Positions 635-64,000 are shown, numbered from the stretch's first letter. The stretch is DNA of 64,000 nucleotides from an uncultured Gammaproteobacteria bacterium (GCA_964594455.1 CAZQLY010000003.1:37360-101359), one strand, 5' to 3'. A program made the numbers and translations. The notes: generated from the sequence alone by a model not told the origin.

Positions 635-637
635 TTT

Positions 638-2005
638 ATGCCGGATCTTCTAAAGAATAAAAAAGCAACCACCCTTCATTCATCTGCGAAGAAAAAATTC
701 ATTACTTTTGGTAGCCGAGAAACATGCTTGATCCGAGATGAACCCTGGTTTACCTGGTTGGCTAGAAACGGCGTTGAGTTCATTGATCTTCCGAATGGCC
801 GTATTTATGATTATTACGTTAGTGAAAAAGATTATCACCAGGCTTTAGAAAAACTAAGGATCAAGATGGCCCGTAATTGGAGCCAGCATTTAATAAAATA
901 TCATAAAAAGAAACGGGCGGTTATTAAAACCGCTTGTGATTTAAGGTTATCTGTAAAGTCTGGTAACAGGTCCGGAATATTAGACAGGCACAATAAATAC
1001 TTCCAGGCGGCTTATGATTTTAATGAATACATGTGGGGTGCTTGGGCGGTTATTTATCGAGTTGAGCCTGATGTGATGCAAGAAATACCCGAGGAAATTG
1101 GATTAATTGCCAAGCTAGATCAGCCAATCAATTTTATGAAAATGCAGCGTGATGTATTTTGTTTGCCGGCTAATAAATGGCTCCAGGAATATCAGTGGTT
1201 GAAGATGTATAATCCGTACGATCCGGTTTATACGAAAAAAGATTATTTAAAATTTAGAAAAACCTTAAAACGATCTGAGCTGAAAAAGCAATTTAAGGAA
1301 TTGGCAAAAACCAAGACGGATTTTGATAAGCTGATAAGACAAATCAAAAACCGCAGCTTGAAGCAGAAGATGCTGATGATTCACGTTTACGCCTGGCTAA
1401 AAACAGATCGGATTGATGTTTGGCGTAAGTCAATATTTGAATTAAGAGACTTTTATCAATATTTGGCGCAAGAGCTGCCTGGAGCCTCTTTGCGTGATGC
1501 CTGTAATTTGAGCTGCCAGGAAATTCGTGAGTTACTAAACAAAAAAAGGGCTGTATCAGCCAAAGAATTGAAAAAAAGGAGTAAAAATAGTGCGCTGTAT
1601 TATGCTCAAGGCAATAGGTTGAGTATTTTGTATAGTAATGAGAAAATTAGAAAGATAACTAAACAGCTGACTACTCAGGCGTATTCGGAAAACATTACCG
1701 GGGTTTGTGCCAGCCCGGGTTGGGCGGTTGGAAAAGTAAGCATTATTTCTCATTCATCTGATTTACGTAAAGTAAAAAATGGAGATGTGTTTGTCGCCAA
1801 ATATACTTTCCCGACCTATCTGCCAGCTATGGCCAAATGTTCAGCTATTGTTACGGATGACGGTGGGATGACTTCGCACGCTGCCATAGTTGCGCGCGAG
1901 TTAAAAATACCCTGTGTTGTTGGAACCAAGAATGCCACACGGCTGTTAAAGGATAAGGATAGAGTTGAGGTTAAGGCGACAAAAGGTCTAGTGAAAAAGA
2001 GATAA
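638..2005 (+). CDS. PEP-utiliser swivel-domain protein paralog with a divergent N-terminal region
   Basis: 455-aa ORF. The C-terminus reads GGMTSHAAIVARELKIPCVVGTKNATRLLKDKDRVEVKATKGLV, a phosphohistidine-domain signature with the catalytic His retained. The N-terminal ~330 aa are not recognisable by eye. Confidence 0.6.
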   Translation: MPDLLKNKKATTLHSSAKKKFITFGSRETCLIRDEPWFTWLARNGVEFIDLPNGRIYDYYVSEKDYHQALEKLRIKMARNWSQHLIKYHKKKRAVIKTACDLRLSVKSGNRSGILDRHNKYFQAAYDFNEYMWGAWAVIYRVEPDVMQEIPEEIGLIAKLDQPINFMKMQRDVFCLPANKWLQEYQWLKMYNPYDPVYTKKDYLKFRKTLKRSELKKQFKELAKTKTDFDKLIRQIKNRSLKQKMLMIHVYAWLKTDRIDVWRKSIFELRDFYQYLAQELPGASLRDACNLSCQEIRELLNKKRAVSAKELKKRSKNSALYYAQGNRLSILYSNEKIRKITKQLTTQAYSENITGVCASPGWAVGKVSIISHSSDLRKVKNGDVFVAKYTFPTYLPAMAKCSAIVTDDGGMTSHAAIVARELKIPCVVGTKNATRLLKDKDRVEVKATKGLVKKR

Positions 2006-2073
2006 GAACAGTCAGCGGGCCTTCCAGGCTCGCTTTTAGGTAGTTTTTGCATAATTTATGCTATAATTAGCCT

Positions 2074-3606
2074 ATGTCTGGATTAAAGATAATACCAAAA
2101 AGCGACCGACTGCAATGGGGTTCGATGCCGGCTGTGCCATACTTTATTATGCTGGTGGCTTGGGCAGTCATCGGTCGGGCACAAAAGAGATTTAAAAGCA
2201 GCTGGCCGCACGGGCAGGAGCTTTTTTACGATAAGGAATTTGGCGTTTGGTTTAGCTATATGTCCGAAGTTGAGAAGAGCGGTATGAAAGCGGCTAAAAA
2301 GTTTTATCATCATCCTAAACGATTGCGATTGCTAAAAAAAGAATATGCAGCCTGCTTAAAGGTTATCCAGGAAGCGCGTAAATTTGTTCATCAATATTCT
2401 TTACGCAAATTTTCCTATGACGAATTGTTGGATTTGTACCGAACTTTTGTGGATGTGTATGAAAGACTTTGGACAGTAACGATTCAGTCAGAGATTACCG
2501 GTTATGGATTGAATGGATTTTTTACTAGAGAAATCCCAAAACATTTCCCACCCGACCAAGTAGCTGAGGTTTTGTCAATTCTATCAACCAGCGATGACCT
2601 TTCTTTTTATCAAAAAGAGGAGATAGATTTTTATTCTATATTAAAATCACTTAAGCCTAGTAGTTCTGTTTTAAAGAACGATAAAAATTTCCGCAATTGG
2701 CTCAAGAAAAAACATCCTCAGGTTAATTACAAGTTGCAGCAACACGCCAAAGAATACAGCTGGTTGATGAACAACTATAAACGCGGCCAGCCTTTGCCAG
2801 AATCATATTTTTACTCCAGAGCCAGACATGTGTTATCTGAAAACAAGCATTTGGACGAAGAGATTCGTGCTATAAAGAAACAATTTAGGCTGTCATTGAA
2901 CAAAAAGCGTGCCTTGATAAAAAAAGTCCAAGCCGGACTTTTGAAATTTTATGCCCAAAAGGTGATAGGCGATGCTATCGCCTGGCAGGATGACCGCAAG
3001 GGCTGGCAGATGCGAGCTCAAGAAGTGATTTATCGTTTTCTTCAGGAGTTTTCTCGCCGCAAAAAGGTCAGTTTAGATAAATGGTATTATCTTACGCCAA
3101 AAGAAACCTGGGCAGTGCTGGTGGGAGCGCTTCGATTTCCGCATCGAGACGTCAAAGCCAGGCAAAAAAGAATGTTAGTCGTTGTAGATTATAATGATTA
3201 CAGAATTTTTACCGGCCGGGTGGCAGAAAAGTTTTATCGCATTTATCGAACTAACTATAAGAGCGACAAGGACCGTGAAGTAAAAGGAATAGTGGGCTCA
3301 CGCGGCCAGCCGGGCATTTTACGGGCCAAGGTTCAAATATTGCACAGCCCGTCTCAAGTAAAAACTTTCAAAAAAGGTAGGGTGTTGGTGGCCGAATTAA
3401 CCAGCCCGGATTATATTGGTGCGATTCGAAAAGCCAGTGCCATTGTTACAGACCACGGCGGCCTAACTTCACACGCTGCCGTGGTAGCGCGGGAGTTCAA
3501 TATCCCCTGCATAGTTGGTACGAAAAATGCCACTCAGGCTTTTTCCAGCGGCGATTTAATAGAAATTGATTCAAATACTGGTGTTGTTAGAAGGGTTAAA
3601 AAATGA
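2074..3606 (+). CDS. PEP-utiliser swivel-domain protein paralog
   Basis: 510-aa ORF. The C-terminus reads GGLTSHAAVVAREFNIPCIVGTKNATQAFSSGDLIEIDSNTGVV. The stop overlaps the next start (ATGA at 3603). Confidence 0.6.
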   Translation: MSGLKIIPKSDRLQWGSMPAVPYFIMLVAWAVIGRAQKRFKSSWPHGQELFYDKEFGVWFSYMSEVEKSGMKAAKKFYHHPKRLRLLKKEYAACLKVIQEARKFVHQYSLRKFSYDELLDLYRTFVDVYERLWTVTIQSEITGYGLNGFFTREIPKHFPPDQVAEVLSILSTSDDLSFYQKEEIDFYSILKSLKPSSSVLKNDKNFRNWLKKKHPQVNYKLQQHAKEYSWLMNNYKRGQPLPESYFYSRARHVLSENKHLDEEIRAIKKQFRLSLNKKRALIKKVQAGLLKFYAQKVIGDAIAWQDDRKGWQMRAQEVIYRFLQEFSRRKKVSLDKWYYLTPKETWAVLVGALRFPHRDVKARQKRMLVVVDYNDYRIFTGRVAEKFYRIYRTNYKSDKDREVKGIVGSRGQPGILRAKVQILHSPSQVKTFKKGRVLVAELTSPDYIGAIRKASAIVTDHGGLTSHAAVVAREFNIPCIVGTKNATQAFSSGDLIEIDSNTGVVRRVKK

Positions 3607-4682
3607 AAAAAGCAAAGCAACGCCATCCTTATCATATGTTCACCAGAGATTTTTCTCTTTTTACTTCCGAGCTTTGGTATTGGCTGGTGACAGAATCAAT
3701 GCGGGCTGATATCGGCTTTAGTTTAAGTGATCAGATAGTAAATTATGACGGCCGGTCAGCTCAATGCTTTAGATTAAAGGAAGATATGGATGATTTTAAA
3801 AAGCTGGTTATTAATCTCCCAGACTATCATCGGCTTTTCAGCGAAGAAAGTCACCTCGAGTTCCGCTCGATCCTAAAAGAAATAAAAAGGCTGATTGCAA
3901 TCAAGCCCAGAGAGCCTTTTACTTTTAACCCAATTCAAAAGGTAATTCAGCATTGGGAAAAAATATGGGCTATGTTTGTTATTGCTTTTAATTTACCGTC
4001 TGGCTGGGCTGAAGATATCAAGAAGAAAAAAGGTGCCCGAGCGAAAAGAATAATCAATGATTATTATCAGGATCGTGTTTCATCTGAAGGCGCATTTGAA
4101 TTAATGGATGCAACAATTCGAGAATATATCGAACAGTTGTTTAAAAAACACCACATTCCAACCAGGTATTCGCATCTGATAGGTTTTACTGAATTCATGG
4201 ATTTAATGGAATTAGGCATTAAGCCTCCATTAAGCGTTTTGCAGGCCAGGAGTAAGGGTTATGTAACTATTAAAGGCAAGATATATACTGGGAAAGACTT
4301 TGCTGAGCTTTTGAAAAAACATGGCTATATTTATTCCAGAAAAGATGTAAATAAAAACATCAAAGCGTTTGAGGGATTAGCAGCTTACTCATCGGGTATT
4401 GTCAGAGGCAGGGTTAGCCTAGTTTTCAATATTCAGGACATGAAGAAGTTTATAAAAGGAAAAATCATGGTCTCACCGGAAACTTCACCGGTTTTTCTAC
4501 CCGCCATGAAAAAAGCCAAAGCAATAATTACAGATGAAGGTGGTATCACATCCCATGCTTCAATAGCCTCGAGAGAATTCAAAATACCCTGTATTGTCGG
4601 CACTAAGATTGCCACAAAAGCACTAAAGAACGACCAGCAAATAGAAATAGACACTAAAAACGGAATAATCAAAATTATATGA
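3603..4682 (+). CDS. PEP-utiliser swivel-domain protein paralog
   Basis: 359-aa ORF. The C-terminus reads GGITSHASIASREFKIPCIVGTKIATKALKNDQQIEIDTKNGII. It is translationally coupled to both neighbours (overlapping stop and start). Confidence 0.6.
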   Translation: MKKAKQRHPYHMFTRDFSLFTSELWYWLVTESMRADIGFSLSDQIVNYDGRSAQCFRLKEDMDDFKKLVINLPDYHRLFSEESHLEFRSILKEIKRLIAIKPREPFTFNPIQKVIQHWEKIWAMFVIAFNLPSGWAEDIKKKKGARAKRIINDYYQDRVSSEGAFELMDATIREYIEQLFKKHHIPTRYSHLIGFTEFMDLMELGIKPPLSVLQARSKGYVTIKGKIYTGKDFAELLKKHGYIYSRKDVNKNIKAFEGLAAYSSGIVRGRVSLVFNIQDMKKFIKGKIMVSPETSPVFLPAMKKAKAIITDEGGITSHASIASREFKIPCIVGTKIATKALKNDQQIEIDTKNGIIKII

Positions 4683-6109
4683 AATGGACATTTATTGGAA
4701 CCAGAAGAGTAGCAGTACAAGTGGCCGAAGCCTGGTGTTATGGCTGGGGGCAGGCTATGAAAAAAGTTTACGGTGTTTATATTAATTCAACTTTGATATA
4801 CCGTGATGAGAAAAAAACTGATATTTTTGCTGATGCCAAAGATTATAAAAGGTTTTATTCCGGATTGCTAACATTGTTGCAAGATGAAAGATTTGTAAAA
4901 GACTTCCATCCCCAAGCCCAAAAGAGGTTAGAAGAACTTTATTCAGAAATGAAGAAAATTTTAGCAGTTGATTTAAAGAAATTAACCGACAAGCAGTTAC
5001 TAAAGTTGTTTGAGAAAGAAATATTGCCCAGACAAACTCAGTTCTACGTTCGGATGTGGACAGTGTATCAAATCGGTGAACCAATGACTGAAACGATGTC
5101 TAATATTTTGAGAAAAAAATTGAATGACGGAGCACGCGTCACAGAGTTATTGGTTAAATTAGCTGAACCTTTAAGTTTTAACGACGCTATCAGTAATCGT
5201 TATGAGCTTTTGAAGTTAGCAGTTGATGCCAATAAACTTAAACCAGCCGAGTTGGATATGAAATTAAAGCTTCATGCTAAGAAGTTCCAGCATATCCCAG
5301 TATATGATATTGATCATGATCCTTATACTTACGATCATTTCAAACAAGAGTTGAAGGAAATAAAAGACGCGGCCAAGGAACTGAAAAAACTGGAATCAGA
5401 AATAGATCGCAGAAAAAAAGAACACAAAAAGATAATCAGTGAATTAAAGCCCGATCGAAAGTTCTTGGCTCTCATTAACTTTATCAAAGAGAACTCTTTT
5501 CTTCGTGATTACCGTGATTCAATTAGGCAGAAGCTTAACCTGGAATTAAAAAAGTACTATGAGGAATTGGCTGATCGGATGAAGATTACATTAGAAGAAG
5601 TAATAACGTTAGTAAACAGTGAAATAATTGAGTATTTTGGTCAAAACAAAAGATTCCCCCAGGAAGAATTAAATCGCCGCAAGAAATCGTTTTTTCTGAT
5701 AGTGCGAGGAGAAAAAATAAAAATATTGTCTGGAAACGAAGCCTTAAAAAAAGCCGAGCTGGAATTGGGATTAAACAAAGCTTCCAGCAACCAATTGCTC
5801 AGAGGAGTGATAGGCTCAAAAGGTAAGGCAAAAGGTGTAGTCAAAATAGTATACACCAACCGTGATTTAGATAAGGTAAAAGAGGGAGAAATTTTAGTGT
5901 CTAGTATGACTCGACAAGATTTTGTTCCAGCAATGCGCCGAGCTGGGGCTATAGTAACTGACGAGGGCGGAGTAACGTGCCATGCAGCCATTGTTGCCCG
6001 GGAATTAGAAACCCCTTGCGTTATCGGTACCAAAATCGCAACCAAAGTCTTAAAAGATGGCGATCAAGTGGAAGTAGATGCGAATAAAGGAATTGTTAAA
6101 AAGATCTAA
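4679..6109 (+). CDS. PEP-utiliser swivel-domain protein paralog
   Basis: 476-aa ORF. The C-terminus reads GGVTCHAAIVARELETPCVIGTKIATKVLKDGDQVEVDANKGIV. Confidence 0.6.
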   Translation: MKWTFIGTRRVAVQVAEAWCYGWGQAMKKVYGVYINSTLIYRDEKKTDIFADAKDYKRFYSGLLTLLQDERFVKDFHPQAQKRLEELYSEMKKILAVDLKKLTDKQLLKLFEKEILPRQTQFYVRMWTVYQIGEPMTETMSNILRKKLNDGARVTELLVKLAEPLSFNDAISNRYELLKLAVDANKLKPAELDMKLKLHAKKFQHIPVYDIDHDPYTYDHFKQELKEIKDAAKELKKLESEIDRRKKEHKKIISELKPDRKFLALINFIKENSFLRDYRDSIRQKLNLELKKYYEELADRMKITLEEVITLVNSEIIEYFGQNKRFPQEELNRRKKSFFLIVRGEKIKILSGNEALKKAELELGLNKASSNQLLRGVIGSKGKAKGVVKIVYTNRDLDKVKEGEILVSSMTRQDFVPAMRRAGAIVTDEGGVTCHAAIVARELETPCVIGTKIATKVLKDGDQVEVDANKGIVKKI

Positions 6110-6245
6110 ATAATAAATAAATGTTAAAAACCCCAAAACAATTAAACGACAGAACAAAACCTTATACGTTTGGGATTTAGCTGGTACACTTTTTAATGAA
6201 AAATGGAATAATAAGCTCACGGGTTTTGATAGTTTTGATGAATGG

Positions 6246-6791
6246 GTGGAAAACAAACTTGGGAAGAAAATATCTGAAATGTCAGATTATGAATACGAAC
6301 GTGGTTACGAAACACCTTATAAGAAAGGCGCAATGTTTAATTTAAAAACTGTAGATGGATTTAGAGAAGTGCTTGATAAGACGCATAATAACGAGGCTTT
6401 TTCTAGCGGTAATCCAGAACAGCTTCTATGTCGGGCTAAGTACTTAAATCCGAAAATTGGCTTCAATCTGCTTAAATATTTCCTAGCCATAAACTCACCT
6501 TTTGACTATGGAACAAGCAATAAGAAAACAGCAGAAGTATATAAAAAATATCTGTTAAAAAAATACAAACAGGGATATCGGACTATTATTTATACAGAAG
6601 ATAAAGCTAAATACATTAGCTCGTTTAAAAAAGCCGCTGCCAATGTTAAAATCAAACACCCAAATTTTAATTATCACATTTATCATATATTAAGAAACAA
6701 AAAAGGCATTAAAAGAAAAAATGGCTATTTTGAAATTGGTAATTTGTGGGATTTACTAAAAAACGAAAAGAAGTTGAATAATATCATATGA
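6246..6791 (+). CDS. hypothetical protein; the annotated GTG start is doubtful and there may be an upstream extension through a frameshift (HAD-like DLAGTL motif upstream)
   Basis: 181-aa ORF. The same frame stays open and coding-like back to about 6117 (..KTLYVWDLAGTLFNEKWNN..) but has no start codon there. An ATG at 6121 lies in the +1 frame (MLKTPKQLNDRTKPYTFGI*), and the two frames meet at a GGG run at 6170-6172. Confidence 0.4.
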   Translation: MENKLGKKISEMSDYEYERGYETPYKKGAMFNLKTVDGFREVLDKTHNNEAFSSGNPEQLLCRAKYLNPKIGFNLLKYFLAINSPFDYGTSNKKTAEVYKKYLLKKYKQGYRTIIYTEDKAKYISSFKKAAANVKIKHPNFNYHIYHILRNKKGIKRKNGYFEIGNLWDLLKNEKKLNNII

Positions 6792-7543
6792 ATAATTTAG
6801 CAATTAAAAAACAAAAAACTGTTAAATTTGGATTAGCCGAGTGGTTTCTGACAGGTGGTATGCTTTTTGCCGTTTTGGTATCTTATTTAATATTCAGCGT
6901 ACCAACAATTTCCGATTTTATCGAAATAGTATGGGATAAGGTTGTGGAATATAGTTATGATTTAGGGTATCTGGGGGCATTCTTTATGTCTTGGTTAGGC
7001 AATTCCACGATTGTAATCCCTTTTCCTTATACGGCGTTGGTATTTTTATTCGGAGCTAGCGGCTTAAACCCAATGGCTCTAGGAATACTGGCAGGTGTAG
7101 GCGCAACGTTGGGCGAGTCGATTTCCTATATTGTTGGGTTCTTGGGTTATAAAGTTACTAAGGACAAATATAGGAAAAACATGAGCGCCTTGAGGAAATT
7201 AATAGACACCAGACCAAAGTTTGCCATATTTTTCTTTTTTCTAATCGGCGCCACCCCAATTCCCGATGATGTATTCATAATTCCGTTGGGATTGATTCGC
7301 TATAATGTTTTCAGGGCGATTATTCCATTTGCTATAGGTAAAATAGTTTTGACTTCAATAATCGCCTACATGGGATATTTTGCTGGTGATGCCACTACTA
7401 TCGGATTTCTAGAGGACCAAAGGGAATGGGTCAACGTCATGTCGCTGGTTGGAGTTATTATAGTAATTTACGCAATATTGAAGATTAATTGGGAAAAGTT
7501 AAGCGAGCGATTAATAAAAGATACGGGTTCACAACAATCATGA
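6788..7543 (+). CDS. DedA/SNARE-associated (TVP38/TMEM64) family membrane protein
   Basis: 251-aa multi-TM protein with the characteristic ..GATPIPDDVFIIPLGLIRY.. region. Its start overlaps the upstream stop. Confidence 0.5.
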   Translation: MNNLAIKKQKTVKFGLAEWFLTGGMLFAVLVSYLIFSVPTISDFIEIVWDKVVEYSYDLGYLGAFFMSWLGNSTIVIPFPYTALVFLFGASGLNPMALGILAGVGATLGESISYIVGFLGYKVTKDKYRKNMSALRKLIDTRPKFAIFFFFLIGATPIPDDVFIIPLGLIRYNVFRAIIPFAIGKIVLTSIIAYMGYFAGDATTIGFLEDQREWVNVMSLVGVIIVIYAILKINWEKLSERLIKDTGSQQS

Positions 7544-8127
7544 CGATCTACCAGGGGTTAAAAATAATTGACCAAGCAAAATTACCCCATCCCGAATGGC
7601 AGTTCGTTAGGACTTCAAAAGATATTAAAAATTTAAATAAGGTCAAAGACTATTGCGGTTGGACGATCAGAACAGCCAAGGTGGATGGAGCGCCTTGGCA
7701 GAACCTATACGTGAATTGGTTGCCCAAGAAAAAGGTTTCAGTCAAAGTAGATGAGCTTCAGGCTCAACATCCGGGCCGGGCCATGTTTGTAATTTACCCT
7801 TCCTGGGAATGGAAGAAAGGTGGCACTATTTTGGTAGAAAAGGAGCGAGTTGTCATAAAGGCCACCCGAGGTGAAATCGTGAATTTAATGCGCTACGGCA
7901 AAATAAGTGCCAGCTACGTTTTTCAAAAAGGGAAATTGGTTGAGGTAAACGGTGATAAGAATTTTTTATCTGTTTCAGAGATAAAAAAAGTTATTCAAGC
8001 CCAAGAACGTATTAAGAAAAAAAACGTGATTTTGGAATGGGGCATTACGACTCAGAATAAATTCATATTTTACCGCATAGAAGACTTAAAAGAAGCAGCT
8101 AAGTTATTAATTGAGAAATATTCATGA
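7540..8127 (+). CDS. hypothetical protein, possibly a minimal ATP-grasp-like partner of the downstream swivel-domain gene
   Basis: The probable start is the ATG at 7540, which overlaps the upstream stop (ATGA). Its own stop overlaps the next start at 8124. A weak resemblance of GGTILVEKERVVIKATRGEIVNLMRYGKISASYVF to an ATP-grasp lid is by eye only. Confidence 0.35.
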   Translation: MTIYQGLKIIDQAKLPHPEWQFVRTSKDIKNLNKVKDYCGWTIRTAKVDGAPWQNLYVNWLPKKKVSVKVDELQAQHPGRAMFVIYPSWEWKKGGTILVEKERVVIKATRGEIVNLMRYGKISASYVFQKGKLVEVNGDKNFLSVSEIKKVIQAQERIKKKNVILEWGITTQNKFIFYRIEDLKEAAKLLIEKYS

Positions 8128-9596
8128 TAGTAAAATTTCGAAGCATTAACTGGGTCTACGAATGGGAGAGGTCGATTAATTTTTACCACGGTCATTTGAT
8201 AGCCCGTTTGTGGAACCAGCATAGTCTAGAGCGCTGGCCGACAAATTTTTATTGGCCCAAGAGAAGACAATACTTGTTGTTAAATAAAAGGGATACTGGT
8301 TTTGCCTACGTTGATATAAAAGAGGTGAATCGACTTTCGGATAATTATTTGGACAAAATTACAAAGAAAGATATTGCCGGACGATATGTGAAACAGGCAG
8401 ACACTCTAGTTCGAAGCGTCATCCGATTTGTCTCCCAGCACAAAAAAGCTGATCTGAAAAAGATGGATCGAAAAGATTTTCTTAAGTTATTTGGTGATTA
8501 TTTCTATTACTATTTTTCATTGACTGGCCTGGTAGGGGAAATCCGAACTGTCAACTGGACCGGCATTGAAGTCCTTAAGAGTAAAATTAAAAGAAGTTTT
8601 AATAATGACAGACAGCTTCAGAAAGCAGTGAATATTCTGACGGCTACACCGCGCGAAAGCTTTTTAAACAAATCGGAAAAAGATTTTGTAAAAACACTAG
8701 AAAAAATAAAGAACAATCCTAACCAAAGCCAGAAACTGACAACCGACTATTGGATGAAATATCGGTGGTTTCCTTGTGGCTTTAAAGATGAAGCTCCATT
8801 AACATATCTAGAAACCAAGAAGAAAATAACTAAAGGTTTAAGAGAATATAAGCAGTTGTGCAAAAAAATTAAGCAGGATGAAAAGTTCAGGGCTAATTTG
8901 AAAAAGCAAAGAACCGCGTTATTAAAAAAGATCAAGCCGGATCTGGGAACTAAAAGAATAATTGATTTTTTATCCCAGTCCACTTACTATAAGGATTTTA
9001 CCCGCTTTATGATTAATCGTTGGGGTCACTATGAAATGATCCCAGTTATGAAAGAAGCTGCTAAGCGTCTCGGCATATCATATAAACAGTTGGGTTATTT
9101 AAGTTTTGAAGAAATAGCCGATGGCCTTAGGGGCGAAGCTGTTCCCAGAACTGAAATAAGAAAAAGGCAGCTAGCTTGGGCTTGCGTGGTCATAAACGAT
9201 AGATTTAGGGTGTTGTCTGGTAGTCAGGCCGTTAAGTTAATCGGGACTTTTGATAAAGCAACGACAAGGATAAAAGAATTAAGCGGCGCTACAGCAAATC
9301 CAGGTAAAGCATCAGGCGAAGTGGTAATTGTCAGGAATCTGAGGGATGCCCGTAAAGCAAAAACGCAGGGCAAGATTTTTGTTACCACTATGACTACGCC
9401 CGAGCTAATGCCCTATCTGAGGAATGTCAAAGCTATAATTACAGACGAGGGTGGAATTACTTGCCACGCTGCTATTGTTTCAAGAGAGTTGGGTATTCCA
9501 TGCGTGATTGGGACTGCGCAAGGAACTAGAGTTCTAAAGAATGGTGATCGAGTAGAGGTTAATGCAACGGATGGTGTTGTGAAAAAAATTAAATAA
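8124..9596 (+). CDS. PEP-utiliser swivel-domain protein paralog
   Basis: 490-aa ORF. The C-terminus reads GGITCHAAIVSRELGIPCVIGTAQGTRVLKNGDRVEVNATDGVV. Confidence 0.6.
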   Translation: MIVKFRSINWVYEWERSINFYHGHLIARLWNQHSLERWPTNFYWPKRRQYLLLNKRDTGFAYVDIKEVNRLSDNYLDKITKKDIAGRYVKQADTLVRSVIRFVSQHKKADLKKMDRKDFLKLFGDYFYYYFSLTGLVGEIRTVNWTGIEVLKSKIKRSFNNDRQLQKAVNILTATPRESFLNKSEKDFVKTLEKIKNNPNQSQKLTTDYWMKYRWFPCGFKDEAPLTYLETKKKITKGLREYKQLCKKIKQDEKFRANLKKQRTALLKKIKPDLGTKRIIDFLSQSTYYKDFTRFMINRWGHYEMIPVMKEAAKRLGISYKQLGYLSFEEIADGLRGEAVPRTEIRKRQLAWACVVINDRFRVLSGSQAVKLIGTFDKATTRIKELSGATANPGKASGEVVIVRNLRDARKAKTQGKIFVTTMTTPELMPYLRNVKAIITDEGGITCHAAIVSRELGIPCVIGTAQGTRVLKNGDRVEVNATDGVVKKIK

Positions 9597-40246: not shown

Positions 40247-43200
40247 TTATTTCTGAAAAAGCTTAACTACTTTTTCGATTTCAATCATCCACTTTTTGGA
40301 TAAGTTTTCGAAATCAATCTTTATCTGATTTTCACCCAGCACCCAATTAGCATTTAGATCCAGCAATTTTTTAATTTGATCAGGCGTATATTGTTCTAAG
40401 AATTTTATCACCAGGCGGGGCTTTACTATACCGCCCTCAGTAACATGAATCGTGTCAATACTTTCGATCGAAGTTTTTTGAGCTGATAGCCGGAGCTGGA
40501 GTAAGCGATAGAGGTTTTTTATGTTAGTGGGACAGGCGCCATACTGTTTTTCTATAGCTTGATAACGATCACGCAACTCTTCGTTATCAGTGGCGTCTGA
40601 CAGATCACGATACACTTTTAGCCGTTGATTTTCTAATCCAATGTAATCGTGCGGTATGGTTATTGGCAGAGGCAGATCGATCGAAATATCCCTGATTTGG
40701 ACCGCTGCTTTTCCAGTCTTTATTTCTTCAACTGCCTGGCTGAGTAGCTTGGAGTAAAGGCTTAATCCGATAGCATTGACCCGGCCGTGCTGTTCCCGGC
40801 CCAGGATATTGCCCACACCGCGAATTTCCAAATCCCGTAAAGCCAGTTGGAATCCGGACCCAAGTTCTCTGGCTTCGAGTATGGCCTGTAATCTTTTCTT
40901 GGCTTCGCCGGTTAGTTTTTTCTGAGGATATAGGAAATAGGCATAAGCCTGTCTGTCGCCTCGACCGATTCGGCCTCGGAGCTGATAAAGCTGTGCTAGC
41001 CCGAAACGAGTAGCATCTTCGACAATTAGCGTATTAACATTTGGGAGATCAAGGCCGTTTTCAATAATAGTAGTTGAAACCAACACATTGATTTTCTGAT
41101 TGTCAAAATTTGACATAGTCTTAGCCAGTTGGTCCTCGGGCAACTGCCCATGAATGATTCCTATTTTACCTTTGGGTATAAGTTTTTTGAGCTGGTTAGC
41201 CTTGGTGTTTATTGTTTCAACTCGGTTGTAAAGAAAATATACTTGTCCGCCCCGTGATAATTCCAATTCAATCGCCTGCTTCATCAAAGTATCGCTGTGC
41301 GGCTTAATGATTGTTTCTATTGGCTGACGACCCTCGGGGGCAGTTCTAATTACAGTCATGTCGCGTAGTGAAGACAGGGAAAAGTTTAATGTTCGGGGGA
41401 TTGGTGTAGCAGTCAGAGTAAGCACGTGGGCATTTACCCTTAGCGATTTCAATTTTTCTTTATGTTGGACACCGAAGCGCTGCTCCTCGTCGATTATTAT
41501 CAAGCCCAATTTTTTAAACTTAACGTCAGGCGAGAGTAAGCGATGAGTGCCGATAATAATGTCTGTTTCACCGGTTTTTAATTTTGCCACGCTTTCGCTC
41601 TGCTGGCTGCGAGTTTTAAACCGGCTCAGCGAATCTATTGTGACTGGGAATTTTTTCAAACGGTTGGCAAAGGTATCATAATGCTGCTGGGCCAATATGG
41701 TGGTGGGCGCCAAAATCGCCACTTGTTTTTTGTTGGCCACTGTTTTTAATGCCGCCCTAATTGCTACTTCGGTTTTGCCAAACCCGACATCGCCGCAGAT
41801 CAATCGATCCATCGGTTCATCCCCCTCCAAGTCGTTTTCAACTTCACGAATGGCCTTGACCTGATCAGGTGTCTCCTCATAAGCAAAACTTTTGGCTAGC
41901 TCACGCTCCATTGGTGTGATCGATTTAAAGGGTTCGATTTTGGCAGTTTCACGTTTAGCGTATAACTTTACTAGCCCTTCTGCCATCTTTCTGGCTTCGG
42001 CTTTTATTTTTTTGGTAATCCGGCGCCAGGTGGTGTTTGATAAACGATGAACTTTGGGAGCGACTGAGCCAATGTATTTATCTATCTTATAGGCTACTTC
42101 CACTGGAACGGATAGTTTATCACCTTCAGCATATTCTAACTTTAAATACTCTTTTTCAATTCCGTCGACGGTGTTGTGGGCTAAGCCGCGGAAGCGTCCG
42201 ATCCCATGATCGACATGAACGACCAGATCGCCCGGCTTCAATTCTGCGATGAAGCTGAGGTCGAGACGCTTCTTTTTCTGAGGGGGTAATTTTTCTCGAC
42301 GGCCGAATATTTCAAGTTCTGTTAGAAAGACAGTTTTATGTTTTGGCCAATGAAAGCCCTCTGGTTTACTGAGCTGACTCCCGTTAGCCAGAAATTTTAT
42401 TGGTAATGGTGAACCGGGGGAGTTATTTGACCAGAGATCCGTTATTTCTTGTTTGAGATAATCGGGGCTATAAAGCGAGTAGCCTTTTGTGTGCCAACTC
42501 TTCAAATCTTTGATTAACTTGCCGAAGTTTTTATGGTACAGCGGAGCGCTGGTTATTTCAAAGACGTTATTGGCGTCGGGATGGGGCAGGGGGTGAAATA
42601 CGATTTGGGGGCGTTTCTTAATTATCTGAGCGATATTTTCCCAATGATGAGAGACGTTTGGTATTTCATCAGGATCAGAATAGATGAATGCTCCGCCATT
42701 GCTTTTTAATTCTCTTAGATATTCCAACCAGCGGCCAGAGGACTCTAAGTGGCTGAGCTGGTTAGGAATAATTGTAAATTCTGACAACTTTTGTGTTTTT
42801 TTGCCGGACGATTGGCGGTAACTCGATATGCTTTCCAGCTGAGATTGTCCAAACTCAAATCTGATCGGATCTGGTGTATTAGCTGGAAACACATCTACAA
42901 TATTTCCTCGGCGAGAAAAAACACCCACTGCGTCAGCTGAAGTGTTAAAATCATATCCTAGTGAAACCAATTGTTGTGACAACTCGGCTGGAGTTAATTT
43001 TAGGTCAGGTTTGGTATAAAAGCTATGTTCTCGATATTGGTCCGGTGCTACAAATGAAAGATCCAGTTGATCAAAAGGTAATAATATCAAACAAGGCTTA
43101 TTTTCCAGGATGCTCCATAATATTACAGCTAGTTGATCTTCGTTTGGTACATATATGGGATAATCATGGTTTTTACTGTTCCAAAGTGAGAACAATGAAG

Positions 43201-43369
43201 CAATTCTCTCAGCCTCTCCTTGGTTTTCGACAAACCAAAAAGTGACCTCATTTCTAATATTCGGGGAGGAAATGTTTGATAACAAATAAGTTTTGGCAAC
43301 ATCTGAAGGCGCGCCGGAGATGCCATAGGCACCCAGCGTGTTGGGCTTCAGCTCAATAGGTGATTTCAT
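40247..43369 (-). CDS. mfd: transcription-repair coupling factor Mfd
   Basis: 1040 aa. CarD/TRCF-RID region ..LKPGDLVVHVDHGIGRF.., superfamily-2 helicase motifs (GDVGFGKTEVA, DEEQRFGV) and a C-terminal TRCF domain. Confidence 0.85.
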   Translation of the reverse strand: MKSPIELKPNTLGAYGISGAPSDVAKTYLLSNISSPNIRNEVTFWFVENQGEAERIASLFSLWNSKNHDYPIYVPNEDQLAVILWSILENKPCLILLPFDQLDLSFVAPDQYREHSFYTKPDLKLTPAELSQQLVSLGYDFNTSADAVGVFSRRGNIVDVFPANTPDPIRFEFGQSQLESISSYRQSSGKKTQKLSEFTIIPNQLSHLESSGRWLEYLRELKSNGGAFIYSDPDEIPNVSHHWENIAQIIKKRPQIVFHPLPHPDANNVFEITSAPLYHKNFGKLIKDLKSWHTKGYSLYSPDYLKQEITDLWSNNSPGSPLPIKFLANGSQLSKPEGFHWPKHKTVFLTELEIFGRREKLPPQKKKRLDLSFIAELKPGDLVVHVDHGIGRFRGLAHNTVDGIEKEYLKLEYAEGDKLSVPVEVAYKIDKYIGSVAPKVHRLSNTTWRRITKKIKAEARKMAEGLVKLYAKRETAKIEPFKSITPMERELAKSFAYEETPDQVKAIREVENDLEGDEPMDRLICGDVGFGKTEVAIRAALKTVANKKQVAILAPTTILAQQHYDTFANRLKKFPVTIDSLSRFKTRSQQSESVAKLKTGETDIIIGTHRLLSPDVKFKKLGLIIIDEEQRFGVQHKEKLKSLRVNAHVLTLTATPIPRTLNFSLSSLRDMTVIRTAPEGRQPIETIIKPHSDTLMKQAIELELSRGGQVYFLYNRVETINTKANQLKKLIPKGKIGIIHGQLPEDQLAKTMSNFDNQKINVLVSTTIIENGLDLPNVNTLIVEDATRFGLAQLYQLRGRIGRGDRQAYAYFLYPQKKLTGEAKKRLQAILEARELGSGFQLALRDLEIRGVGNILGREQHGRVNAIGLSLYSKLLSQAVEEIKTGKAAVQIRDISIDLPLPITIPHDYIGLENQRLKVYRDLSDATDNEELRDRYQAIEKQYGACPTNIKNLYRLLQLRLSAQKTSIESIDTIHVTEGGIVKPRLVIKFLEQYTPDQIKKLLDLNANWVLGENQIKIDFENLSKKWMIEIEKVVKLFQK

Positions 43370-43456: not shown

Positions 43457-43484
43457 TTGACAAATTAATCCTTTGTGCTAAGAT
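43457..43484 (+). promoter_or_regulatory. sigma70-type promoter (TTGACA-N16-TAAGAT)
   Basis: TTGACAaattaatcctttgtgcTAAGAT. It faces the small-ORF and tRNA region downstream. Confidence 0.35.
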
Positions 43485-43605
43485 GCAACATCGATTATTT
43501 GGGGATACCCTGGTATTCGAGATATCATGGCCTTTGGATTACTACCAACGAGCGGTGAACGATGTAGCAACCCCTCCTAGCTACAACAAGTAGCCTCAAG
43601 ATAAG

Positions 43606-43887
43606 GTGAATTCGTTTATCGAGTACATCCTTGCGCTTGTTGGTAGTGACCTGGGGGTCATTTTTGTTTTGTGGATAAGGCTCTTTACAGAACTAATTAT
43701 TTTCGATATAGTCTCGTTTGTGACTTTGGCAGAGGCAATACCCATTTTCATTAATGGGGCCTGTGAGCTTCCGATGAATTTGGGTCTCTGCCTCAAAGTT
43801 GGTTGCGTTCTTTTTTCATATAGATGTTCGCTTGGATACTTCTCCCCACAACGCCGAACTAAGGAGAAGATAAATGGGACAGTATGA
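43606..43887 (+). CDS. possible small hydrophobic protein (93 aa); coding status uncertain
   Basis: The GTG-initiated ORF is hydrophobic (..ILALVGSDLGVIFVLWIRLFTELIIFDIVSFVTLAEAIPIF..) and no clear Shine-Dalgarno sequence was seen. A 119-aa antisense ORF overlaps it. Confidence 0.2.
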   Translation: MNSFIEYILALVGSDLGVIFVLWIRLFTELIIFDIVSFVTLAEAIPIFINGACELPMNLGLCLKVGCVLFSYRCSLGYFSPQRRTKEKINGTV

Positions 43888-44001
43888 TGAAGACGATGCT
43901 GAGTTCCTGAATTGGGATCCCAGCGCTGTCTCAGAGGAAGCGAAACCCCTGGCACGTTCTACGTTGCCGAAGCCCCCGAATCTAAACCATTTGTCAAAAT
44001 A

Positions 44002-44166
44002 GGAGACCGGGTCGTTTTTGGTTAGCAGGTTGGCGTGATCGATTGTATGAAGTCTATGAACGCGGTCGAGTCAAACTGCTCGGGCGTGGTGACCGAACAG
44101 CTGGTCGAGGACAGTGATGTTGTGGAACAGGGCCAAGTGCTTTTCCGTCTGCAACCCGATGTTTGA
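44002..44166 (+). pseudogene. remnant of a biotinyl/lipoyl-attachment (BCCP-like) domain interrupted by an in-frame stop
   Basis: GDRVVFG*QVGVIDCMKSMNAVESNCSGVVTEQLVEDSDVVEQGQVLFRLQPDV matches the ..EAMKMMN..G.V..I.V..G..V..GQ.L..I pattern. It is only ~55 codons with a TAG after codon 7 and has no upstream carboxylase. GC-rich. Confidence 0.3.
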
Positions 44167-44167
44167 T

Positions 44168-44352
44168 GCGGCTGTAGCTCAGTCAGGTTAGAGCCCTTGG
44201 TACAAGTCCAGCCAGAAACAGTGGCCTGTTTGTCCTTGCAAGAGAGTGGGCTGCTACCTAACCCGGATTATGGATTAGGGCAGGTAAGGCATTAACTTGC
44301 CTGTTGGCTGGGTACGACAAGGAGATCGAGGGTTCAAATCCCTTCGGCCGCA
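44168..44352 (+). tRNA. tRNA-like gene interrupted by a ~104-nt structured insertion (candidate intron-containing tRNA or disrupted tRNA); anticodon unresolved
   Basis: The 5' part reads GCGGCTG-TA-GCTC-AGTCAGGTTA-GAGC-C-CTTGG.. and the 3' part reads ..GAGGG-TTCAAAT-CCCTT-CGGCCGC-A. The acceptor stems pair 7/7 (one G-U). The insertion at 44208-44311 begins CCAGCC and ends GGCTGG. Confidence 0.4.
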
Positions 44353-44361
44353 CATGGTTTA

Positions 44362-44434
44362 GGCTGGATAGAACAGGTGGTAGCTCGCTGGGCTCATAAC
44401 CCAGAGGTCATGGGTTCGAATCCCGTTCCCGCCA
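44362..44434 (+). tRNA. tRNA with CAT anticodon (third CAT tRNA); CCA not encoded; one acceptor and one D-stem mismatch
   Basis: GGCTGGA-TA-GAAC-AGGTGGTA-GCTC-G-CTGGG-CTCATAA-CCCAG-AGGTC-ATGGG-TTCGAAT-CCCGT-TCCCGCC-A. Mismatches at 4:69 (T:C) and 12:23 (A:C) mean it could be a functional Met/Ile2 tRNA or a decaying copy. Confidence 0.5.
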
Positions 44435-44598
44435 CAACCTTTCCTGCGCGGTTACCCCCACGCAGGGCCAAGGGCGGTGAACAGTTTCATTGGAAACTAG
44501 TTCTCCGCCCTCTTTTTATGCCTTGACAAAAAAATGTTTTTTTGTATAAAGTTACTTGTTGTATAAACGGTTGTTGTCCTAGCAAAAGGAGGTGTGGC

Positions 44599-45252
44599 GT
44601 GTCAGCTAGAAGATTGGTAAAAGGCAGGCTTCTCTTTGTTCCTCCTCGGGAGCAGGTCAGATTGCTCCGCCAGTGGAACAGCGAGTATGATCTGAGTATT
44701 CCGGAAGAATGGTTTGCTAGCCTGGGTAAACCTCCCCGGCACCCCGACCGCCCACTCTGTACGGTAGTTCTGGATGTGGGCTTGAGGACCATGTGGGAGA
44801 CCTTGATTAGGGCTTGGCAGATCGCTGCGGCTCAGCAAGACTATGCCTGGCGGGACTCGGACCTGATTCGGATGTGTACGGTGCGCATGGGTCCCAAGAT
44901 AAATCACCTGCCGGGTTTGCGCTGGCGAATCGTCAACTTAGGTGCCAATTGGTTTCCTGACGATTCCGGAAACTATTATGCTCCGAACAGTCTCCAATGC
45001 CCGCAAGATGGTCCAGACGCTGCGTTACTATGGGCAGCAGCCTATTTCCCGAAGTGGATCCAGCGCATGGACGGAAGGGAAGTTCCCTTTGTCTGGATAC
45101 CTGGATATCGCGTACAGGAAACCGGTGATGATTCGTCATGGTGTTACATCCCACGACTCTATTTCTATCAGGCCGATGACGGTATCTGCTTGGATGCTGA
45201 TCATCAAGAGAATAGTGGTCCCAAGTGGGCGGTGCCGGAGCTCATTGACTAA
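44599..45252 (+). CDS. hypothetical protein (GC-rich, Trp-rich)
   Basis: The probable start is the GTG at 44599, preceded by AAAGGAGGTG. A weak hairpin plus T-run at ~45278-45310 follows. Confidence 0.4.
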   Translation: MSARRLVKGRLLFVPPREQVRLLRQWNSEYDLSIPEEWFASLGKPPRHPDRPLCTVVLDVGLRTMWETLIRAWQIAAAQQDYAWRDSDLIRMCTVRMGPKINHLPGLRWRIVNLGANWFPDDSGNYYAPNSLQCPQDGPDAALLWAAAYFPKWIQRMDGREVPFVWIPGYRVQETGDDSSWCYIPRLYFYQADDGICLDADHQENSGPKWAVPELID

Positions 45253-45317: not shown

Positions 45318-45902
45318 TTAGTTGTATTGATTCATTGATTCAGCCAGGCTTTTTTTGATAGCCAGCAGTATTGCTTCTACTGTTTCGTCGACGATTCCTT
45401 TTAATATCTTTTTTTGATCAGGTGAGAAACCCCGGAGTACAAACCTGGCAGTGGTTTGTTTGTGATAACGAGCTTTGGCTGATTCTTCCTCTGATGGCTT
45501 TATTCCGACGCGAAAACGTGGGAACTTCTGAGTTCCTAAGCATTTGATCACTGAAGTAGCGCCTTTGTGCCCGGCTGCAGATCCGTAAGGTTTGATTTTT
45601 ATGTAGCCAAATTCTATATCAACATCGTCGTATACCAACCAAATATTCTCAGGCTTTATTTGGTAAAATTGAGCTATATTATTTATAGGAAAACCCGACA
45701 GGTTCATATAGGTGGTTGGCTTGGCCAGAATTATATCGGTGCGACCGACTCTAGTTTTAACAATCTCGGCTTTGAGTTTAGTTTTATTGCCAAATTTTAC
45801 TTTTAACTCTTTAGCCAAAGCATCAAGTACCATAAAACCAATGTTATGACGAGTGGTAGCGTATTTTTTCCCTGGATTACCTAGTCCGGCGATCAATATC
45901 AT
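45318..45902 (-). CDS. pth: peptidyl-tRNA hydrolase
   Basis: MILIAGLGNPGKKYATTRHNIGFMVLDAL.. canonical Pth N-terminus. Confidence 0.8.
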   Translation of the reverse strand: MILIAGLGNPGKKYATTRHNIGFMVLDALAKELKVKFGNKTKLKAEIVKTRVGRTDIILAKPTTYMNLSGFPINNIAQFYQIKPENIWLVYDDVDIEFGYIKIKPYGSAAGHKGATSVIKCLGTQKFPRFRVGIKPSEEESAKARYHKQTTARFVLRGFSPDQKKILKGIVDETVEAILLAIKKSLAESMNQYN

Positions 45903-63477: not shown

Positions 63478-63625
63478 TTTCTAAATAAAAACGGCCAGAA
63501 CAGGTTTGCTTTTTTATTTTTATTCTGGTATAATTGAGCTACTTTTTGCGTTTTTTGTTTTAATATTAGCTTTTTTCTTCATCAATACGAGTATTTGTAT
63601 ATAGCAACCCACTTCCGCCGCCAGC

Positions 63626-63890
63626 GGGCGGCTAGCTCAGCTGGTTACCTGCCTGCCGGTAGGCGGGGAGCGCTATCCTCATACCTGCCTGCGCGGAGCC
63701 TCACATTAATTATATTATATGGAGCAAAGATGCTTCGGCAAAGGCAGGCCTATCCGCCGCGCTCGTGTAGCTCAGCTGGTTAGAGCGCTATCCTCACACG
63801 ATAGAGGTCCCTGGTTCGAGTCCAGGCACGAGCACCATCGCTCCGACGGGCGGGCGATAGAGGTCACAAGTTCGAATCTTGTGTCGCCCA
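63626..63890 (+). tRNA. split tRNA-like gene (CAT anticodon) carrying a 20-nt hairpin insertion in the D-loop and a ~171-nt insertion at the canonical 37/38 position that contains a complete tRNA-Val gene
   Basis: With the insertions removed the sequence folds as GGGCGGC-TA-GCTC-AGCTGGTTA-GAGC-G-CTATC-CTCATAC-GATAG-AGGTC-ACAAG-TTCGAAT-CTTGT-GTCGCCC-A with perfect stems (one G-U). The inserts are 63648-63667 and 63684-63854, and both start CCTGCC and end GGCGGG. Confidence 0.5.
63761..63837 (+). tRNA. tRNA-Val (CAC), CCA encoded; nested inside the insertion of the split tRNA
   Basis: GCTCGTG-TA-GCTC-AGCTGGTTA-GAGC-G-CTATC-CTCACAC-GATAG-AGGTC-CCTGG-TTCGAGT-CCAGG-CACGAGC-A-CCA. Confidence 0.85.
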
Positions 63891-64000
63891 CTGGCTGCAG
63901 AAGTGGATAGTAATTAACCTTAGATTAATATCTTAAGTAATAAAAAATAATCATGACATTCTTAGACAAAATAAATAAACCCAGACCGGGTTTAAACGTC

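Follow-up and report, generated by a model that had tools for sequence, protein, structure and literature searches.

A tRNA-Val(UAC) gene interrupted just 5′ of its anticodon was found at positions 44168-44352 of a 64,000-nucleotide (nt) stretch of DNA (GCA_964594455.1, CAZQLY010000003.1:37360-101359), hereafter called the window. The strongest case against a chance resemblance is the presence of the same interrupted gene in three other assemblies, with compensatory changes in its helices. A selected, interrupted tRNA-Val gene can be regarded as firmly established. Regarding the nature of the insert, the best explanation, to which we give an even chance, is that the locus would be a functional, vertically inherited tRNA-Val(UAC) gene with a bacterial intron that is not a ribozyme and is probably excised by proteins.

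Detection and anatomy of the interrupted gene

To begin with, the two flanks of the insert were found to form a cloverleaf with a 7-base-pair (bp) acceptor stem and D, anticodon and T arms once the insert was removed. When introns were allowed, ARAGORN called a tRNA-Val(tac) at 44168-44353 with a 111-nt intron at 44202-44312, which was its sole intron-containing call across the 64 kb at the default threshold. In its default mode, ARAGORN reported five ordinary tRNAs in the window, as did the Rfam tRNA model, and the interrupted gene was not called by either of them. Moreover, the joined exons were still called in all four species carrying the gene (described below) with the threshold raised to 112-118% of the default, the intact tRNAs of the window passing at 116-122%. 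For the whole precursor, structure prediction gave a cloverleaf in which the anticodon arm is prolonged (-75 kcal/mol, z = -3.0), and none of 200 shuffled sequences was as stable. Read on the plus strand from 44168, the 5′ half of the gene runs GCGGCTG-TA-GCTC-AGTCAGGTTA-GAGC-CCTTG-GTAC-AAGT-CCAGCCA, and the 3′ half, up to 44352, runs TGGCTGG-GTAC-GA-CAAGG-AGATC-GAGGG-TTCAAAT-CCCTT-CGGCCGC-A. The parts of the gene are as follows:

44168-44199 (+): 5′ part of the tRNA, with the acceptor strand GCGGCTG, TA, the D arm GCTC/GAGC and the anticodon-stem strand CCTTG
44168-44201 (+): exon 1 (ARAGORN intron mode and sequence), with the acceptor 5′ strand, D arm, CCTTG (44195-44199), G44200 and T44201; its 3′ end is ambiguous within 44199-44202
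44200-44203 (+): GTAC, left copy of the 'H' element, on the 5′ strand opposite GTAC 44312-44315 and paired by RNAfold
44202-44312 (+): intervening sequence, 111 nt by the 33/34 convention of ARAGORN (homologous inserts of 124, 115 and 50 nt)
44204-44207 (+): bulge AAGT on the 5′ strand (AGGT, ACGG and CAAT in the homologues)
44208-44214 (+): CCAGCCA, 5′ strand of the terminal helix P1
44220-44255 (+): intron arm 1, which holds the motif CCTTGCAAGAG at 44229-44243
44257-44279 (+): intron arm 2, a hairpin
44280-44304 (+): intron arm 3, whose 9-bp hairpin (7-nt loop) stacks directly onto P1 at its 3′ strand
44305-44311 (+): TGGCTGG, 3′ strand of P1
44312-44317 (+): G-TAC-GA, right copy of the H element with the presumed anticodon TAC (44313-44315), followed by G37 and A38
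44313-44352 (+): exon 2, with the anticodon, CAAGG, variable loop AGATC, T arm, acceptor 3′ strand and discriminator A
44318-44352 (+): 3′ part of the tRNA, with CAAGG, variable loop AGATC, T arm GAGGG-TTCAAAT-CCCTT, acceptor strand CGGCCGC and discriminator A

A first-pass annotation of the window had described a tRNA gene interrupted by a structured element bounded by a terminal helix, and this description held in the intron call, in the homologues and in the co-varying helices. Its coordinates were also reproduced, with CCAGCC at 44208-44213, GGCTGG at 44306-44311, 104 nt between their outer ends and an acceptor stem paired in 7/7 positions (one G-U).

Conservation at a syntenic site

The window has a G+C content of 41.9% and carries housekeeping genes (SecDF, ParAB, RelA/SpoT, TopA, DprA, Mfd, Pth, Der, LytR and WxL proteins). 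Its Pth protein has its closest named relatives in metagenome-assembled genomes labelled 'Patescibacteria group bacterium', and the host is an ultra-small bacterium of the Patescibacteria, likewise represented by a metagenome-assembled genome. The interrupted gene is flanked by mfd (40247-43369, minus strand) and pth (45318-45902, minus strand). Relatives were collected with Pth homologues as anchors, and their contigs were compared. The gene order LytR-Der-Pth-gap-Mfd was conserved among them, and the gap held the interrupted gene in three assemblies:

L047 (GCA_016294925.1): Pth identity 65%, gene at c[9144-9341], insert of 124 nt
L048/L052 (GCA_028714495.1): Pth identity 60%, gene at c[5882-6070], insert of 115 nt
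L057 (JGI 3300022556): Pth identity 62%, gene at c[1067-1230], insert of 50 nt plus a second insert of 40 nt

Across the four species, the Pth proteins were 60-66% identical. The gene of L048/L052 was mis-spliced by ARAGORN as 'Stop(tta)', and that of L057 was recognized only once both inserts were removed. This second insert of L057 (1092-1131, minus strand, AGGCCTTCGCCTGCCAAAGCAGGCTACGGCCTGCGTCGGC) lies between the variable loop AGGTC and the T stem and is closed by AGGCC/GGCCT. No tRNA was found at the syntenic site in the relatives whose Pth was 56-59% identical (L054-L056, L058 and L059). Furthermore, exact patterns were searched in larger collections: that of the 5′ exon had no match among the species representatives of the GTDB genomes, that of the 3′ exon retrieved from the GTDB and the JGI metagenomes only two contigs already known through synteny, and the intron and exon patterns had no match in IMG/VR.

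For the analysis of covariation, an alignment (A2) was built from exon and junction sequences together with the first five terminal-helix pairs, with the intron interiors replaced by a linker and with an extra GT and the second insert of L057 taken out. Under the proposed structure, 95.8% of the alignment cells were paired and nine pairs were changed on both sides, a score that none of 500 column shuffles reached, while slid controls had 37-51% of cells paired. The compensatory changes fell in the acceptor, anticodon and T stems as well as in the terminal helix of the intron, where 5/5 counted pairs of P1 were changed on both sides among the homologues:

Acceptor stem: GCGGCTG/CGGCCGC (window), TCGGGTG/CACCCGA (L047), GCGGGCG/CGCTCGC (L048), GCGGATG/CGTCCGC (L057)
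Anticodon stem: CCTTG/CAAGG (window), CCTTG/CAAGG (L047), CCTTG/CAAGG (L048), CCCTG/CAGGG (L057)
Terminal helix: CCAGCCA/TGGCTGG (window), CCGGTTG/CAACCGG (L047), CCGGC/GCCGG (L048), GGCC/GGCC (L057)

In addition, RNAalifold recovered independently the anticodon stem, a 7x5 internal loop and a 9-bp terminal helix from the three long introns. The covariation of the exon helices together with the terminal helix therefore identifies a selected RNA and not a fresh insertion or a decaying pseudogene. The sequence signature CCWGCC/GGCKGG, by which the first-pass annotation had defined the ends of the insert, was not borne out, as the homologues carry CCGGTTG/CAACCGG, CCGGC/GCCGG and GGCC/GGCC at these ends; it is the structure that is conserved.

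These data bear directly on the possibility of a recent disruption by a mobile element, which the first-pass annotation had also raised. A small mobile DNA element resembling a miniature inverted-repeat transposable element (MITE), with terminal inverted repeats, would have entered the anticodon loop with a target-site duplication and turned the gene into a disrupted pseudogene. Such an element would account for the terminal inverted repeat CCAGCCA/TGGCTGG and the flanking GTAC...GTAC in the window, where the neighbouring Biotin_lipoyl gene is itself a pseudogene. However, each of the four species with the gene carries an insert at this site, despite their divergence, and the helices of the gene are maintained by compensatory change. 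The terminal helix co-varies as an RNA helix instead of being conserved like a transposase binding site, and self-BLAST over the 64-kb window and about 0.6 Mb of retrieved loci gave no further copy. Moreover, the 'duplication' is exact in only two of the four species. We thus regard a MITE-like origin as very improbable.

Structure of the insert and its junction

The exons of the four genes were about 85% identical, while the introns were only 51-59% identical and varied in length from 50 to 124 nt. Three hairpins were present in the introns of three species and a single one in that of L057, so the interior of the intron is dispensable. Well-kept exons beside a divergent intron are as expected of an exon/intron pair maintained by selection. 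As judged from this comparison, the insert is constrained at the junction only, with a poorly conserved interior, and it contains no open reading frame (ORF). At the junction, the same order of elements was kept throughout: the anticodon stem of 5 bp comes first, then a 3′-strand bulge of 2 nt, the 4-nt element GNAC/GN′AC, a 5′-strand bulge of 3-4 nt and lastly the terminal helix with 5 bp or more. The 3′-strand bulge, formed in the window by G37 and A38, reads GA, AA, AA and AG in the four species, the homologues of G-TAC-GA being G-TAC-AA, G-GAC-AA and G-TAC-AG. Each bulge is placed 3′ of the central element, with the same polarity as in the archaeal bulge-helix-bulge (BHB) motif.

The left and right copies of the central element are GTAC/GTAC in the window, GCAC/GTAC in L047, GGAC/GGAC in L048 and GAAC/GTAC in L057. 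The outer pairs, G-C and C-G, never vary, and mismatches are frequent at the inner ones. This element is the feature that had been read as an imperfect direct repeat left by a duplication. As a mere pattern, the GNAC repeat is explained equally well by RNA pairing with a near-palindromic anticodon region as by a target-site duplication, since G-UAC is nearly palindromic and its complement consequently looks like a repeat. Given the invariant outer pairs, a GNAC strand facing G-UAC is the better description. A K-turn at the tandem G-A of GGAC/GGAC in L048 was also considered and rejected for the wrong polarity of its bulge.

Regarding the interior, the arm-1 motif CCTTGCAAGAG recurs in L048 (CTCTTGCAAGGG) and in part in L047 (GCTTGCCAGAG), and it is absent from the short intron of L057. 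It resembles the anticodon-stem strands CCTTG and CAAGG fused without a loop. A role of this motif as an anticodon-stem decoy that re-pairs with the exons was discarded, because no 4-bp central helix was built in the window. Likewise, excision of a cloverleaf-shaped intron by RNase P and RNase Z was discarded, as P1 and arm 3 stack over about 18 bp and not 12, and the 5′ cut leaves eight extra nucleotides.

Proposed excision of the insert and evidence for and against it

The only self-consistent reading across the four sequences takes the right-hand copy of the central element as the anticodon (TAC, TAC, GAC and TAC in the window, L047, L048 and L057), followed by a purine at position 37 and A or G at position 38. 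We infer from this that exon 1 would end between positions 31 and 34, and that exon 2 would start at or just before the anticodon, right after the terminal helix. Four choices of junction, from 31/32 through 34/35, each give a 7-nt loop and a Val anticodon, in agreement with the earlier suggestion that the splice boundaries lie a few nucleotides inside the flanks. The identity of the product as tRNA-Val is further suggested by A35 and C36, found in all four species, and by the discriminator A73 (4/4). These three nucleotides are identity elements for valyl-tRNA synthetase (ValRS) in Escherichia coli.

In the mechanism that we favour, the precursor, probably co-transcribed with the downstream tRNA-Met, would fold as a cloverleaf whose anticodon stem runs on into a helix-bulge-helix-bulge-helix. 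A structure-specific protein endonuclease may then cut both strands beside the GNAC element, the left one between positions 31 and 34 and the right one directly after the terminal helix, and an RNA ligase would join the halves into a 74-nt tRNA with the anticodon N′AC, R37 and A38. Depending on where the cuts fall, the junction would read GAGCCCTTGGTTACGACAAGGAG (33/34 model), GAGCCCTTGGGTACGACAAGGAG (G33 model), GAGCCCTTGGTACGACAAGGAG (6-nt loop) or GAGCCCTTGGTACAACAAGGAG (BHB-type cuts).

Several observations weigh against this mechanism. Firstly, nucleotide 26 is absent in 4/4 homologues, as nothing stands between GAGC and CC(T/C)TG, a run common to all of them, and the spliced product would therefore be an atypical tRNA. 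Secondly, no junction choice yields a conserved U33, the position being G in 4/4 species or else T, C, G and A. Thirdly, with cuts at the canonical BHB positions, after the second nucleotide of each bulge, ...GTACAA would be fused to CAAGG and the loop would have 6 nt. When they were shifted by one nucleotide, the resulting anticodons were ACA or ACC, discordant among the species, so the cut sites cannot be the canonical BHB ones. Fourthly, a Pfam scan of the ORFs within the 64-kb window gave no EndA, RtcB or RNA ligase domain. Moreover, the family seems to be confined to a narrow clade, as far as the searched collections reveal, with only four homologues. Finally, the positions of the cuts, the enzyme and the joining of the halves are inferred from sequence. 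On the side of the literature, nothing relevant was found on a splicing endonuclease or RtcB in the candidate phyla radiation (CPR). As for the D arm, a search of IMG/VR with its 18-mer matched 43 unrelated phage tRNAs, in which the anticodon normally stands at position 36, not 35.

The missing nucleotide 26 and the lack of a conserved U33 are what keep alive an alternative in which the RNA is never spliced. It would be a tRNA-like RNA with a long anticodon-arm extension acting outside decoding (for example as a ValRS substrate or a scaffold), or else a relic kept, for instance, for the processing of tRNA-Met. Both features are near-universal in decoding tRNAs and absent here under every splice model. 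A35 and C36 are kept in both GNAC copies, and A73 is kept as well. Furthermore, selection on the cloverleaf and the terminal helices is no proof of excision. On the other hand, the context of the right-hand loop (N′AC, purine 37, A/G 38 and a five-bp stem) is exactly that of a decoding tRNA-Val, and an insert of 50-124 nt with one to three hairpins is typical of an intron, unlike a functional domain. Since a helix beyond the anticodon loop is incompatible with use on the ribosome, a Val-UAC decoder would also have to exist elsewhere. On balance, we consider the unspliced alternative unlikely.

Comparison with known introns and inserts

The introns of bacterial tRNAs are, in textbook accounts, group I ribozymes and in a handful of cases group II ribozymes, and the splicing of tRNA introns by proteins is regarded as characteristic of Archaea and Eukarya. 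At the gathering threshold, only tRNAs were matched by Rfam in the whole window, and the same was true at E<=10 for 44100-44500 and 63550-63950, with no match to group I, group II or any ribozyme.

Group I introns sit in the anticodon loops of bacterial tRNAs, including those of Patescibacteria, at 33/34, 35/36 and other positions (PMC13011429). The present insert resembles them in phylum, in the kind of host gene and in lying in the same part of the anticodon loop, and in the window it follows a U33 (T44201) and ends in G (G44312), as group I introns do. However, the nucleotide at -1 is C, G and A in L047, L048 and L057, respectively, the inserts measure 50-124 nt (111, 124, 115 and 50 nt) instead of about 200 nt or more, and the P3-P9 core is absent, with no RF00028 match at E<=10. 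Similarly, a group II intron, with its domain V, six domains (RF00029) and reverse transcriptase, is contradicted by the lack of an Rfam match and of any ORF and by the length of 111 nt. A 2026 survey of tRNA introns in Patescibacteria would miss these inserts, because its pipeline starts from hits of the group I model (PMC13011429).

A further possibility is a novel ribozyme intron, far smaller than group I, that splices or cleaves itself. The three long introns share the shape of a four-way junction (P1 plus three arms) and the arm-1 motif CUUGCAAGRG, which could serve as an internal guide, and the window intron is preceded by U and has G as its last nucleotide. Nevertheless, the 50-nt intron of L057 is a single hairpin without the motif, and yet its tRNA body is equally well kept. 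Together with the variable -1 nucleotide, the lack of a ribozyme match and the low intron identity, this makes a ribozyme distinctly improbable.

The insert is also likened to the protein-spliced introns of Archaea and Eukarya, which depend on EndA and RtcB and on the BHB motif, because only its junction is constrained. No catalytic core is present, the length and the interior vary and the junction alone is conserved. Moreover, the junction has an exon-exon helix, a 4-nt central element pairing the anticodon region, a bulge 3′ of it on each strand and an intron helix. The flanking helices co-vary (CCTTG/CAAGG to CCCTG/CAGGG, and P1 in 5/5 pairs). As in Thermoproteales and Cyanidioschyzon, extra inserts were found off the canonical position, in a relative and at 63.6 kb (D loop, 37/38, and the variable loop/T stem junction). 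In contrast, the present host is a bacterium, the bulges are of 2 and 3-4 nt where the BHB motif has 3 and 3, no more than 2-4 Watson-Crick pairs form in the central element, and the anticodon lies in exon 2 with the intron upstream of it. The cleavage sites must also differ, since canonical cuts would not give a functional tRNA, and no EndA or RtcB gene was seen within the 64 kb. A scan for the strict 3-4-3 BHB motif found none at the junction, where the best motif had bulges of 4 and 2 nt around GTAC/GTAC, and a relaxed scan was too permissive to be informative. To our knowledge, tRNA splicing that depends on proteins and not on a ribozyme is so far known only from Archaea and Eukarya.

Short ORF-less inserts of <200 bp that belong to no intron class are common in the ribosomal RNA (rRNA) genes of CPR bacteria, some of them at known sites of intervening sequences (IVSs) processed by RNase III (PMC11270868), and such inserts are also ascribed there, in a citation, to Brown et al. 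2015. The phylum, the lack of an ORF, a length below 200 bp, the absence of group I or II features and a hairpin-like base are common to these and to the present insert. The removal of the insert by a double-strand-specific RNase (for instance RNase III) without religation was considered, by which a two-piece tRNA would be held together by its stems; the insert is indeed a hairpin-like domain closed by a helix of 5-9 bp. However, rRNA tolerates fragmentation without ligation, whereas an insert in the anticodon loop must be resealed for decoding. A nick in that loop leaves the tRNA inactive in translation, as known from the anticodon nucleases (PrrC and colicins). Furthermore, P1 is short for an RNase III substrate, and the modelled cut sites would leave 5′ overhangs, opposite to RNase III geometry. 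A two-piece tRNA of this kind is thus improbable.

Finally, highly disrupted tRNA genes have been described, with multiple introns in Thermoproteales, split genes in Nanoarchaeum and ectopic introns or permuted genes in Cyanidioschyzon (PMC3978253, PMC3728597). They resemble the present genes in having several inserts per gene (as in L057 and in the 63.6-kb tRNA) and in being invisible to standard tRNA finders, and differ in being archaeal or eukaryal and dependent on the BHB motif.

Taken as an intron, the feature would thus be of a type undescribed for bacteria, a member of neither the BHB family nor either ribozyme family, and it suggests that bacteria have an undescribed route for the removal of tRNA introns. 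If a conserved bacterial tRNA intron without a ribozyme is confirmed, it would imply an unrecognized endonuclease and ligase route and would bear on how tRNA introns and the splicing endonuclease arose. In the alternative outcome, a tRNA-shaped RNA with a large insertion in its anticodon arm would have a non-decoding role. Such genes are invisible to tRNAscan-SE, Rfam and default ARAGORN, so completeness estimates of CPR genomes that are based on tRNAs are deflated and isoacceptors seem to be missing.

A second interrupted tRNA gene at 63.6 kb

The removal of 63648-63667 and 63684-63854 from 63626-63890 gave a tRNA(CAT) that passed ARAGORN at 120% of the threshold, and 2/8 tRNA genes in the window are interrupted. 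The two inserts are:

63648-63667: first insert, 20 nt, a hairpin in the D loop
63684-63854: second insert, 171 nt, at 37/38

Both inserts start with the same 11-mer, TACCTGCCTGC, at a boundary of TA followed by CCTGCCTGC, and the outer gene is bracketed by a 22-nt inverted repeat of leader and trailer (63609-63630 and 63885-63906). Moreover, a complete tRNA-Val(CAC) (63761-63837) is nested in the 171-nt insert. It is a paralogue of the outer gene, with 83-94% identity in the D and anticodon arms and with compensated differences in the acceptor and T stems. We know of no complete tRNA gene nested in a tRNA intron in the highly disrupted tRNA systems.

The first-pass annotation had linked this locus with the one at 44.2 kb through a shared terminal signature. 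The tRNA there is indeed genuinely interrupted, but sequence comparison showed that neither of its inserts shares sequence with the 44.2-kb intron, and a common mechanism for the inserts at both loci is no more than plausible. The 63.6-kb locus and the second insert of L057 show that interrupted tRNA genes are recurrent in this lineage. A broader proposal, which we put forward tentatively and hold to be possible rather than probable, is that this is a lineage of Patescibacteria with protein-dependent tRNA splicing, whose introns would lie 5′ of the anticodon, at 37/38, in the D loop and at the variable loop/T stem junction, one of them carrying a complete tRNA gene, and whose machinery would recognize a BHB-like motif that is cut differently.

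Neighbouring features

Two features follow the interrupted gene downstream:

44362-44435 (+): tRNA-Met(CAT), 9 nt downstream of the interrupted gene and probably in the same transcription unit
44472-44510: GC-rich hairpin GGGCGG...CCGCCC followed by a T run, downstream of tRNA-Met (sequence reading)

The tRNA-Met shows a T-C mismatch in the acceptor and another mismatch in the D stem, and its 57.6 bits are the second-lowest Rfam tRNA score in the window, which has four tRNA genes with a CAT anticodon when the outer 63.6-kb tRNA is counted. Beside the interrupted tRNA-Val of L047, a canonical-looking tRNA with the anticodon CTA (amber-suppressor type, labelled 'Pyl' by ARAGORN) was found at 8821-8894 (minus strand) between tRNA-Met and tRNA-Gln, with no counterpart in the window.

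On the upstream side, the interrupted gene begins one nucleotide past the stop codon of a Biotin_lipoyl (BCCP-like) gene (43874-44166, plus strand). It is a pseudogene, broken by a single frameshift and by a TAG codon in frame where the conserved G-Q motif has its Gln. Intact orthologues of 119 amino acids (aa) are present in L048 (10398-10757) and L057 (1240-1599), and L047 lacks the gene altogether; the homologue search for this neighbour returned only the query itself. The GC-rich stretch at 43.6-45.3 kb was considered as a foreign island, and this was rejected for the tRNA and the Biotin_lipoyl gene, which are syntenic in the relatives.

Between mfd and the Biotin_lipoyl pseudogene, a candidate conserved small RNA was noticed at about 43505-43672 (plus strand), with a sigma70-like promoter at 43457-43484 and a terminator-like hairpin at 43645-43662. 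Counterparts at the equivalent position in L047, L048, L056 and L057, as well as two copies in L054, shared 67-77% identity with it. Its features include a closing helix of about 26 bp that co-varies, a three-way junction and a hairpin loop with an invariant ACCCCUCCUA, which resembles an anti-Shine-Dalgarno sequence, and Rfam gave no match at E<=1.

Furthermore, a GC-rich (about 55%) orphan ORF lies at 44542-45252 (plus strand). It encodes a Trp/Cys-rich protein of 236 aa (217 aa in the public assembly) with no Pfam domain, and is absent from the syntenic loci of the relatives. Among 5.8 billion proteins, one distant homologue (38% identical) was found, beside murB on an unrelated contig with no adjacent tRNA. 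For the region past the end of the window, a 1496-aa protein was looked up and had no entry on record. Finally, the beginning of the window (17-9596, plus strand) is occupied by six tandem ORFs of 205-510 aa, each ending in a PEP-utilizers 'mobile' domain with no other recognizable domain, the fifth and sixth being separated by three ORFs that lack it.

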